The translations under genes were made by a program, and so were the position numbers. DNA of 64,000 nt from Cyanobacteria bacterium VAR_87_metabat_62 (GTDB lineage Bacteria > Cyanobacteriota > Cyanobacteriia > Cyanobacteriales > Microcoleaceae): assembly GCA_031427135.1 (NCBI GenBank), contig JANPMV010000001.1:4-64003 (forward strand). The letters run 5' to 3'. Numbering within the stretch: the stretch's first letter is position 1; every line of letters begins with the position of its first letter. This document shows, piece after piece, positions 56,407 to 58,646 of the stretch. The notes beneath the pieces were generated by a model. The model searched no databases, was not told where the DNA came from, and saw only the letters and a program-made list of their open reading frames with translations.

Positions 56407-56500
56407 CTAGAAAGCTTACATACTCGCTCTTGGTAGAGCATTTCTTTCTTAAAGAAAAAGTTGCAGGTTCAACTCCTGCGTATGAACAACGGCTTTCTTG
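56407..56500 (+). ncRNA. candidate Y-RNA-like/tRNA-mimic RNA
   Basis: Outer stem AGAAAGC/GCTTTCT, inner stem CATAC/GTATG, D-arm GCTC-TTGGTA-GAGC, closed hairpin TTTCTTT-CTT-AAAGAAA, T-arm GCAGG-TTCAACT-CCTGC. Lies about 700 bp upstream of the rsr-like gene. Confidence 0.5.
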
Positions 56501-56550
56501 ACTTGCGCGACAGTATTTTTCACTACGACACTCGAAAGGAGAATTTAATT

Positions 56551-57021
56551 ATGAACAATACAACTATAATTTACCGATCGCCCTGCGAGATAGACAGCCT
56601 GATTCACGCTTTCCAAGAATGCAGTCTCCCGCGCAGTCAATGGACGCACGCAGCACATTTAACCGTCGGGCTGTGGTATCTGTTTTATGATTCAGAACCG
56701 GAAGCAATAAATGCGGTTCGGAATGGGATTAAACGTTACAACTCGGTTCAGGGAATTGAAAGCACAAAAGATACCGGATATCACGAAACGCTAACGCTGT
56801 TTTGGATGCGAATTGTTCGCGGGTATCTCGCCGAGGAAAGTCGGAATCGCTCGATCGTACATCTGGCTAACGGTTTGATTGAAAAATACGCTGCGCGTAA
56901 TTTACCATTTTGCTATTACACGCGCGATCGGCTGATGTCTGCGGAAGCTCGGATTAATTGGGTTGAACCAGATTTGAGAGCGATCGAACTACAGCAAGTT
57001 TCCCTCAAATCGTTAATTTAA
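56551..57021 (+). CDS. hypothetical protein (156 aa from the internal ATG)
   Basis: ORF 56461-57021. Its first 30 codons overlap the tRNA-like element, so the start is placed at MNNTTIIYRS. Confidence 0.5.
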   Translation: MNNTTIIYRSPCEIDSLIHAFQECSLPRSQWTHAAHLTVGLWYLFYDSEPEAINAVRNGIKRYNSVQGIESTKDTGYHETLTLFWMRIVRGYLAEESRNRSIVHLANGLIEKYAARNLPFCYYTRDRLMSAEARINWVEPDLRAIELQQVSLKSLI

Positions 57022-57050
57022 AATCGCAGTTTTTGCCGCGCCCCAATCGC

Positions 57051-57098
57051 GAGAGCTTACATACAAACCCTACTTAGGTTTACCCAAAAAAAGCTCTC
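57051..57098 (+). ncRNA. paralogous structured element (hairpin version of 56407-56500)
   Basis: GAGAGCTT/AAGCTCTC outer stem, inner AAACC-CTACTTA-GGTTT. Shares AGCTTACATAC and ACTTGCGCG flanks with the upstream element. Confidence 0.4.
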
Positions 57099-57212
57099 CA
57101 AACTTGCGCGGTAATTTTTGAAATTCACTCGCTAGCGTGCAATAACTGCCAACCACCGATTTTGAATTCTTCTCAAATCCAAAATCCAAAATCGAATAGG
57201 AAGGTGACATCA

Positions 57213-58646
57213 ATGAATTTAATAGAGCGCGATTTACGGTTGGAAATGCTCAATAGTCTGCTCACAACTCCTCACAGTCAATTAGAAAAAGTAGCAGAAA
57301 TCCACAAGTTAATTGTCGAATTAGACCCGATTTTTTACGGTCATTTAGCGGTGTGGTATCAGCGTCAAGGCGACGTGCGCGACCACAAGGAAGTTTTTGT
57401 CGGAAATTTGCTAACTTCGACGCTGACAGAACACCGCGACGCCGGATTTATGATGCTGCAACAGTTTCCTCCCTACGAGGTTTCGCGGATTGTGGACTTC
57501 ATGAAGCAGCACAAAAATAAGGTGCCTCGGAGTGCGCGCACTGCTGTCACTCGCTATCTGAAATCGCGGGAAAAGAATCCGCAGTTTTTCGATCGCGCTG
57601 CGCTCCGCAACCGCAAGGCGATGAAGCATTTGTATGCGACTCTGCACGTCAAGCCGAGCGATCGGGCAAATGCGATCCTGTTCCAAGACAATCCGCCGGA
57701 AGACTCTCTGGCTTTCGTTTTGAAGCGGTTAGCAAAGGCTGCGACACCAGCGGAACAGGCTAATTTAATTGTTGAGTACAAGCTTCCGTACACGATCGCA
57801 GTTGGTGCGATCGCCCAGCTAACACCAACGGTTTTGGTAGCGCTGATCCACTCGATGTCGCCGCAGGAAGTCATCAACAACCTGAAATCGATTCAGTCTC
57901 GCGGGGCGATGGATCACCCGGAAGTCAAGCTACTGATTGATTCTAAGCTGGATGAAGCGGCCAAGTGCGATCGGGTTTCTGCTTACAAAGCAACGGTTGC
58001 GGGCGATGTCGGAAACTTCGACGCAGCCACAACGGCGAAGCTGGAAGCGGTGACAAACGAACAAGTCAAGAACCGCGGCAAAATTGTTAAAGCGACTGGT
58101 TTGTTGATTGACAAGTCGGGAAGTATGGAAAGTGCGATCGAAGTTGGGAAGCGTCTCGCTGCTTTGATATCCGGCATTTCCGACGCTGCGCTGTTCGTCT
58201 ACGCCTTTGACACGATGCCCTATCCAGTCCAAGCAAACGGCAGCGAATTGACCGATTGGGAGCGCGCATTCAAGCACATTCGCGCTGGCGGCGGCACAAG
58301 TTGCGGTTGCGCGGTGGAAGCAATGCGGATTAAGAAACAAGTAGTCGAGCAATTCATCATGGTGACAGATGAAGGTGAAAACTCTGCACCTTATTTCGCA
58401 GATGCTTATCAGAATTACTGCCGCAGTTTGGGGGTAATTCCTGATGTGGTAATTGTGCGAGTTGGCGCTTGGTGCGAATATGTTCACAAGCAATTGAAGG
58501 ACAAACAAGTATCGGTGGAAACCTTTACGTTTGCTGGAGATTACTACTCGCTACCGAATTTAGTGCCGATGTTGAGTCGTCCTTCGCGGCTGGAGTTGTT
58601 GATGGAAATTATGGATGTGGCACTGCCAGTCAGGGATGATAAATGA
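57213..58646 (+). CDS. rsr: Ro60-related protein (TROVE + vWA), Rsr-like
   Basis: N-terminal helical region with ...[11 protein letters not shown]...[17 protein letters not shown] resembling the Ro60 TROVE domain. vWA MIDAS DKSGSM, then GGGTSCG and MVTDEGEN as in Ro60. GGAAGG RBS precedes the ATG at 57213. Confidence 0.7.

Follow-up and report, generated by a model that had tools for sequence, protein, structure and literature searches.

A probable Ro/Y-RNA-type locus of a divergent clade in a cyanobacterial genome, with a Ro60-like protein gene and two upstream RNAs on a shared scaffold, one with a tRNA-like tip

Few Y RNAs have been found in cyanobacteria, and bacterial Ro60/Y-RNA systems are thought to be patchy (PMC4201824). 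Here, we describe a locus of Cyanobacteria bacterium VAR_87_metabat_62 (contig JANPMV010000001.1) in which a gene for a 477-amino-acid (aa) Ro60-like protein is preceded on its own strand, within at most 0.9 kb, by two structured RNA elements, with a conserved open reading frame (ORF) of 156 aa between them (Table 1). The stretch analysed, hereafter the window, is 64,000 nucleotides (nt) long; all coordinates are window positions, and the locus lies on the (+) strand. An earlier reading of the same DNA from its letters alone (the sequence-only reading) had proposed a Ro60-like gene with a tRNA-mimicking RNA upstream; the second RNA and the 156-aa ORF were both missed in it, as was the outermost helix of the first RNA. 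Taking the evidence below together, we consider that the locus probably encodes a ribonucleoprotein of the Ro/Y-RNA type and belongs to a divergent clade that is for the most part unannotated. No earlier account of this cyanobacterial protein family or of its RNAs was found in the literature searched, which is not proof that none exists.

For comparison, 80 genome loci carrying the orthologous Ro-like gene were collected, and a pattern scan for the RNA scaffold took in 81 sequences. The loci nearest to that of the window are in Microcoleus genomes, at 92-96% protein identity. After blastn recruitment of RNA elements, a covariance model (R1) was built from 44 sequences.

Table 1. Features of the locus in window coordinates
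Feature	Coordinates	Strand	Evidence or remarks
Y-RNA-like gene 1, two-part long stem with tRNA-like tip	56378..56526	(+)	Fold; R1 score; homologues upstream of orthologues
Basal stem of gene 1, 5' strand (pairs with 56505-56514)	56391..56400	(+)	Helix 1: 10 pairs, 7 compensatory, 98% of cells paired
Conserved internal loop of gene 1, 5' side, CCUAACC (family consensus CCCUAAC)	56401..56407	(+)	Faces UGACUU at 56499-56504
Second stem of gene 1, 5' strand UAGAAAGCU (pairs with GGCUUUCUU at 56491-56499)	56408..56416	(+)	Helix 2: 9 pairs, 2 compensatory, 97% paired
tRNA-like module of gene 1, unpermuted order	56417..56487	(+)	ARAGORN; Rfam tRNA; covarying D, anticodon and T stems
Conserved 156-aa ORF between the two scaffold RNAs	56551..57021	(+)	Conservation; model
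Y-RNA-like gene 2, short form	57026..57123	(+)	Fold; R1 match; direct repeat D4
Putative Ro60/Rsr-family gene, divergent, 477 aa	57213..58646	(+)	Foldseek; profile against PDB; conservation of the MIDAS motif

The Ro-like protein

The 477-aa protein is helical and TROVE-like from residue 1 to about 290, with a vWA domain from about residue 291 to residue 477. The vWA domain holds a complete metal ion-dependent adhesion site (MIDAS) motif, made up of D300, S302, S304, T362 and D386, and these five residues are the sole invariant columns across 50 diverse family members (28-62% identical to the 477-aa query) from which a diverse profile was built. The ORF and the motifs reported in the sequence-only reading, TFTFAGD among them, are where it had placed them.

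Searched against the PDB, the diverse profile matches human Ro60 (E = 3e-16), Xenopus Ro60 (8e-14; collinear over 101-417) and D. radiodurans Rsr (2e-7). The match to the Ro60 of Thermus phage phiLo (6e-14) is collinear over profile positions 23-392 and therefore takes in the helical domain. Significance needed this diverse profile: a single-sequence phmmer search of the protein against the PDB gave nothing useful, and a profile of close homologues reached just E = 0.67 to a TROVE protein. Pfam vWA_Ro60 (PF25045) matches 13 of the 50 members, and an NCBIfam search with the 477-aa protein returned zero matches, even at E <= 10.

Foldseek comparison of an AlphaFold model with the PDB finds the overall Ro60 fold, the helical domain followed by the vWA domain. 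Ranks 1-12 are all Ro60/Rsr (E 6e-11 to 3e-8; TM 0.58-0.65; 462-523 aligned columns), with 2nvo as the best match (E 6e-11; TM 0.63/0.61), and rank 13, at E 4.8e-3, is eight orders of magnitude weaker; from there on, coverage is mostly of the vWA domain only. Together, the profile matches, the full-length fold match and the invariant MIDAS residues mark the protein, on profile and model evidence, as genuinely belonging to the Ro60 superfamily, though at a great divergence, as the sequence-only reading had suspected. Its sequence identity to Ro60 is just about 15%. More than 3,000 cyanobacterial homologues at 73-93% identity are annotated as 'vWA domain-containing' or 'hypothetical', and an exhaustive profile search yielded 1,311 clusters at 50% identity.

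Upstream RNAs and their linkage to the gene

Element 1 scores 130.7 bits against R1 (E = 4e-34), with the covariance-model core at 56385-56522, and the 166 nt at 56370-56535 fold into a single long stem with a cloverleaf tip (-48.8 kcal/mol; z = -5.1 against shuffles). In the majority of the 80 loci, blastn and R1 found homologues of this element upstream of the orthologue and always on its strand, and the family consensus can be written CACUUCGCGCCCUAAC..GGAAGCUUACAUAC-(tRNA body)-GUAUGAACAACGGCUUUCUUGACUUGCGCGAAGUG. The scaffold consists of a basal stem, an internal loop and a second stem, and it is this stem rather than the tRNA body that stays constant in the family. Two parts of it are almost unchanging across the family: the internal loop, in which CCCUAAC faces (G/A)ACUU, and the motif UUACAUAC. 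Within the loop, the 44 sequences show little or no variation at C17, C18, A21 and the ACUUG block, and the loop is proposed as a putative protein-recognition site. In the window copy the outer basal pairs are weak, and an extra outermost helix (56378-56391 / 56513-56526), which is the 14-nt inverted repeat I9 with 93% complementarity, substitutes for them. The outer stem AGAAAGC/GCTTTCT (56409-56415 with 56492-56498) and the inner stem CATAC/GTATG (56419-56423 with 56480-56484) drawn in the sequence-only reading were confirmed at those positions, and its D arm (GCTC-TTGGTA-GAGC) and T arm (GCAGG-TTCAACT-CCTGC) are both present.

A covariation test of the 44 sequences over 40 pairs found 95% of cells paired and compensatory changes in 18 pairs. 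These values were matched by 0 of 500 shuffles, and slid-register controls pair 34-56% of cells. The basal and second stems supply 19 flanking pairs (97-98% paired, 9 compensatory); within the tip, 2 compensatory pairs fall in the D stem, 4 in the anticodon stem and 3 in the T stem. This covariation indicates selection on RNA structure.

The tip of element 1 is called tRNA-Lys(CUU) by ARAGORN and matches Rfam tRNA (RF00005) at 46.1 bits against a gathering score of 29. Its acceptor stem, UACAUAC/GUAUGAA, has an A.A mismatch at 2:71, no CCA is encoded, and the anticodon-type arm, UUUCU/UUCUUAA/AGAAA, has a 5-bp stem and a 7-nt loop. Among the 44 aligned elements, U8 is invariant (44/44), the T loop reads UUCAAYU in most copies, and the acceptor stem is near-invariant in sequence, with 2:71 unpaired as an A.A mismatch in 36. 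The anticodon loop has 7 nt in 36 elements, 6 nt in seven and 5 nt in one. The 36 seven-nt loops hold 23 different triplets, including the stop-reading CUA and UUA and several with A34 (ATT, AAA, AGT), and ARAGORN labels the orthologous copies Stop, Pyl, Tyr, Asn(att), Phe(aaa), Met, Val, Gly and others. U33 is kept in 34 of these 36 loops and a purine at position 37 in 35; the frame of the anticodon loop is therefore preserved while the triplet drifts.

Because orthologues carry drifting triplets and loops of variable length on a fixed acceptor stem, the comparison supports a tRNA-like module that is probably not a decoder and whose anticodon is unconstrained among homologues. The sequence-only reading had come to the same view by another route, holding that this copy cannot decode since its anticodon arm is replaced by a closed 7-bp hairpin with a 3-nt loop. 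That hairpin is indeed the minimum-energy fold of this copy, but the same bases also form the standard 5-bp arm with its 7-nt UUCUUAA loop, and the hairpin is not conserved in relatives, so the argument from a closed arm fails. The further thought that the element might be a decayed form of a tRNA gene intact in relatives was not borne out: the relatives keep the same scaffold and acceptor stem with arbitrary anticodons.

The second RNA has the same architecture, with a basal stem at about 57034-57041 / 57106-57113, an internal loop, a second stem (GAGAGCUU/AAGCUCUC) and the UACAUAC motif, and carries a small hairpin in place of the tRNA body. It folds at -25.3 kcal/mol (z = -4.8), R1 matches it full-length with the apical part deleted (34.6 bits), and direct repeat D4 connects it with element 1. 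Its 3' end, after which a U run follows, lies about 90 nt ahead of the start codon; in a regular-expression census of the listed loci, short elements end 64-192 nt before the start codon. Alignment of 29 distinct short elements gave 16 consensus pairs, 6 of them compensatory. The repeat of AGCTTACATAC at 57054 was considered as an integration-site duplication and rejected, because both flanks of the tRNA body are duplicated and not its 3' end.

In relatives, 2-7 scaffold RNAs stand in tandem at each locus and commonly end in a U tract. Their apical modules are of several types: an unpermuted tRNA-like module (about 128 nt), a T arm only, an insert of about 190 nt, the short form, and a permuted type of about 148 nt in which a T arm, a closed 7-bp acceptor stem-loop and a D arm follow one another. 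Permuted sister elements match the Rfam YrlA model at 38.5-43.5 bits (E about 1e-6), and with one of them YrlA aligns full-length (38.5 bits, E 1.6e-6). Two elements kept by the closest relatives are lost in the window and have in their place a palindromic repeat block at 56230-56379, built of the unit GGAGACGGCAGTGCCGTGTCCCTAC in direct and inverted copies with perfect 32-nt hairpin arms. This block looks like an insertion or replacement because it sits exactly where the closest relatives (locus L002, 2922-3151) have two more scaffold RNAs.

The pattern scan placed 280 scaffold elements upstream on the strand of the gene, 2 downstream and 0 on the opposite strand, with elements of relatives lying up to 3.5 kb upstream. 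R1 found no further scaffold copy in the 64-kb window, nor any outside the array in loci of 20 kb from Nostoc NIES-3756 and Calothrix NIES-267, which have five scaffold RNAs each upstream of the gene. In neither of these two genomes does a tRNA array adjoin the Ro-like gene, and a tRNA array as an obligatory partner of the system was rejected on that ground.

The linkage extends to viruses. Two phage-like contigs (L081 and L082) encode Ro-like proteins about 30% identical to that of the window, each with a scaffold-embedded tRNA directly upstream and a sub-threshold YrlA match. Viral contigs of IMG/VR were scanned with the close-homologue alignment of the Ro-like protein, yielding six that encode proteins 43-47% identical, 4 of which have scaffolded tRNA-like RNAs upstream. 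Such RNAs thus precede the gene in 6 of the 8 contigs (L081, L082, L085, L086, L089 and L090, of the set L081, L082 and L085-L090), and L085 also has a tRNA array, echoing the layout of the window. The motifs UUACA(U/A)AC and (A/G)ACUUG are kept across the whole range, viral versions at 30-47% protein identity included. That the scaffold travels with the protein over such divergence is expected of a cognate RNA-protein pair. The Y-RNA-type context proposed in the sequence-only reading gains from the covarying end stem and from the sister elements with their sub-threshold Rfam YrlA matches.

Tools that search for tRNAs give suppressor, Pyl or odd-anticodon labels to such modules (L015 2940-3012, L033 1742-1812 and other loci). 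The tRNA-like modules are likely to give rise to false tRNA annotations, apparent suppressor tRNAs among them, in the genomes of cyanobacteria and phages.

Neighbouring genes

In 67 of the 80 loci, the Ro-like gene is preceded on its own strand by a homologue of the 156-aa ORF (50-93% identity), and more than 7,900 homologues of the protein were found, all of them unnamed and without a Pfam domain. The model of the 156-aa protein is all-helical (pLDDT 82) and has no fold match in the PDB (best E 1.5); a profile of the family gave S100 proteins alone, at E > 0.3. Weak matches to Tpt1/KptA (E 0.05) and RP853 in Pfam and to an mREase in PADLOC (E 0.037) were rejected as noise. From its position alone, the protein is a possible candidate partner of the system.

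Just upstream of the RNA array, a 66-aa ORF (56021-56221) without a Pfam match is found at 73% identity or more in 64 of the 80 loci and may belong to the same module as the array. Directly downstream of the Ro-like gene is a Phd/YefM-type antitoxin gene (58717-59145), with a homologue in 33 of the 80 loci, and a DUF433 gene follows on the opposite strand (59292-59654, (-)). Downstream of the Ro-like gene in Microcoleus stands a 275-aa ORF with a ThiF-family gene after it (60925-62470 of the window); in Nostoc NIES-3756 (L083, 13577-15071) a 276-aa ORF without a Pfam match and then a ThiF-family gene occupy the same position. The occurrence of a pair of the same size in Nostoc and Microcoleus suggests a wider conserved synteny. 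In Calothrix parasitica NIES-267 (L084, 8355-18078), a same-strand run comprises genes for the Ro-like protein, L12-like and EF-Ts-like proteins, an RNA ligase (PF09414), ARPP-1/ARPP-2 and an AAA ATPase, which hints at an RNA-repair or translation-related island.

Farther upstream in the window, ARAGORN finds a one-strand array of 26 tRNA genes (45186-53588) that ends 2.8 kb before element 1. One call in the array, at 45265-45343, has a 4-nt anticodon (ctct), and two further matches were made by Rfam only (45476-45568 and 48671-48743). Protein genes within it are a microbial-type PARG (47151-47990), an HNH endonuclease (48927-49760), a RibD_C/DHFR-like gene (50410-50982) and a 422-aa ORF (51902-53170).

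Interpretation and rival explanations

Like the Rsr/Yrn1 locus of D. radiodurans (Chen et al. 2013/2014; PMC4201824), the locus combines a Ro60-fold protein (2nvo) with an adjacent same-strand RNA whose ends form a stem. The ends exit from the acceptor side, and a closed 'anticodon arm' stands between the D-like arm and the T arm, as in Yrn1, where this arm has 5 bp and a 6-nt loop (PMC4201824). The sequence-only reading had rightly cautioned that this topology differs from that of YrlA, which has the opposite orientation, its Ro-binding stem replacing the anticodon stem and its acceptor stem being a closed loop (PMC4201824; bioRxiv 10.1101/312249). Unlike in Rsr/Yrn1, the module of the window is a complete cloverleaf that satisfies tRNA finders, the protein escapes the TROVE hidden Markov model (HMM), a CGAA-type motif is missing from the 5' strand of the window RNAs, and relatives have up to 7 RNAs versus 1-4.

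Similarly to YrlA/YrlB (Salmonella, Mycobacterium, phages; RF02553; PDB 6cu1), a tRNA-mimicking module stands on a Ro-binding-type stem and is accompanied by a shorter second RNA; YrlB, without the full tRNA module, is comparable to the RNA at 57026-57123. The AACUUG on the 3' strand of the scaffold, beside the basal stem, resembles the YrlA consensus AaAcUuG, and the arrays of relatives hold genuinely YrlA-ordered members, whereas the element of the window is unpermuted, with its ends at the acceptor side and its anticodon arm closed. The Ro60 of phage phiLo (PDB 9KOP/9L5Y), which gave the best profile match across the helical domain, likewise has two Y-like RNAs, Yrl1 and Yrl2, directly upstream, found through their CGAA motifs (PMC12135203), and shares the viral presence of the family; unlike those of the window, its RNAs are not described as tRNA cloverleaves, and phiLo Ro60 is annotated as a TROVE protein.

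By analogy with these systems, the scaffold (basal stem, internal loop and second stem) may be the docking site of the protein, just as Ro60/Rsr docks on the terminal stem of Y RNAs, and both RNAs would be discrete expressed molecules. The distal RNA would present a complete tRNA cloverleaf at the tip of the scaffold, probably with the L-shape of tRNA kept, to judge from U8, the GG of the D loop, the UUCAAYU T loop and the Y32-U33/R37 frame. Since the anticodon triplet is free to change, the module would act as a tRNA mimic and not as a decoder, and such a tip could tether the protein to, or gate it towards, a tRNA-recognising factor. The proximal short RNA would be this scaffold cut down to a minimum, much like YrlB.

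Several results weigh against a Ro/Y-RNA-type assignment. The 477-aa protein has no Pfam match even at E <= 10, TROVE included, an outcome that the sequence-only reading had named as counting against it, and a scan of the 50 members of the family at E <= 0.01 gave a Pfam TROVE match for none of them. Confidence in the AlphaFold model is moderate (pLDDT 74, pTM 0.55). The Rfam Y_RNA and YrlA covariance models, the check suggested for the RNAs, gave zero matches in 55400-59400 at E <= 10, and in relatives the YrlA matches do not reach the gathering score (69). The 5' strand of the scaffold, which reads CACUUCGCGCCCUAAC, lacks the signature known for Ro binding on that strand, GNCGAAN0-1G / CGAA (PMC4201824, PMC12135203); CGAA occurs in some copies on the 3' strand alone, within a covarying helix, and is unconserved. 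A promoter and terminator scan, itself uninformative, predicted none convincingly. The module passes both tRNA detectors, and with U33 and R37 kept in most copies its processing into a tRNA-sized molecule is possible. The RNAs of the window are thus outside the curated YrlA family and the TROVE HMM of Pfam does not reach the protein; as a model it is too narrow to detect this clade.

The main open rival, which we consider unlikely, is that the elements are structured parts of a leader or operon transcript, such as processing sites, attenuators or operators for self-control by the Ro-like protein. Such a reading would account for their position upstream on the strand of the gene, for the short distance between the short element and the start codon with the U run after it, and for the failure of the scan to detect separate promoters. 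Against this, elements lie as far as 3.5 kb upstream with a protein-coding ORF between them and the gene, each is a self-contained closed stem, commonly ended by a U tract, as a discrete small RNA would be, and in the Ro loci already known, which are laid out in the same way, the Y RNAs are separate (PMC4201824, PMC12135203).

Rather improbable is that the protein shares the Ro60 fold only and has another mode of action, such as that of a vWA-based sensor within an island for defence or tRNA repair, with the RNAs as its substrates or decoys. The low identity to Ro60, the absence of the known Ro-binding RNA motif, the relatives in phage contigs beside tRNA arrays, the RNA ligase, EF-Ts-like and L12-like genes flanking the Calothrix gene and the hypervariable triplet inside a kept U33/R37 frame would all suit it. 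PADLOC returned zero matches for the 477-aa protein, however, and the full-length fold match, the collinear profile alignment to Ro60 and the YrlA-like neighbours fit a classical system more simply.

It is very improbable that element 1 is a normal tRNA-Lys(CUU) gene with a decoding product, standing at the end of the nearby array, and that the flanking complementarity belongs to its precursor alone. Like a canonical tRNA, it has the cloverleaf, U8, the GG of the D loop, the T loop and, in this copy, a canonical 5-bp/7-nt anticodon arm with U33 and A37; ARAGORN and Rfam call it a tRNA, and the 26-gene array ends nearby. Unlike a canonical tRNA, it has an anticodon that is unconserved among orthologues (23 'anticodons', stop-reading ones included, and 5-6-nt loops on one fixed acceptor stem), an A.A mismatch in that stem in 36 of 44 copies and no CCA, and it is enclosed by a stem of 19 covarying pairs, flanks that in other elements also enclose non-tRNA inserts. 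A far better tRNA-Lys(CUU), at 68 bits, is present at 53515-53588. Least probable of all, and hardly credible, is a tRNA-derived mobile repeat (of the miniature inverted-repeat transposable element or short interspersed element kind, MITE/SINE-like) whose copies accumulated here by chance: multiple tandem copies with terminal complementarity and the different palindromic repeat inserted at 56230-56379 fit it, but strict polarity and position relative to one gene, the lack of other copies in the window or in the Nostoc and Calothrix loci outside the array, conservation down to viral homologues and covariation indicating selection on RNA structure all oppose it.

A more speculative proposal, to which we give a small chance, is that the tRNA-like tips of these RNAs serve to decoy or sense enzymes attacking the anticodon loops of tRNAs. 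In its favour are the hypervariable triplet in a kept Y32-U33/R37 frame, the invariant tRNA body, the shared scaffold, the recurrence beside tRNA arrays in cyanobacterial chromosomes and phage contigs, and the RNA ligase and translation-factor paralogues that adjoin the gene in one genome. If this were true, the Ro-like protein, its 156-aa partner and the panel of Y-like RNAs would make up a system of tRNA-damage surveillance or counter-defence traded between phages and hosts.

With the locus read as a probable Ro/Y-RNA-type one, a large clade of Ro60-fold proteins, with more than 3,000 close cyanobacterial homologues and members on viral contigs, is missed by current domain models, and an unannotated, widespread branch of the Ro/Y-RNA system of RNA surveillance is indicated. 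Each gene appears to have its own set of modular small RNAs, with permuted and unpermuted tRNA mimics on one scaffold. Such mixed tRNA mimics may serve as a natural experiment on the purpose of the tRNA-like module of Y RNAs, a question that is open for YrlA, and genetically tractable cyanobacteria such as Nostoc carry the system.

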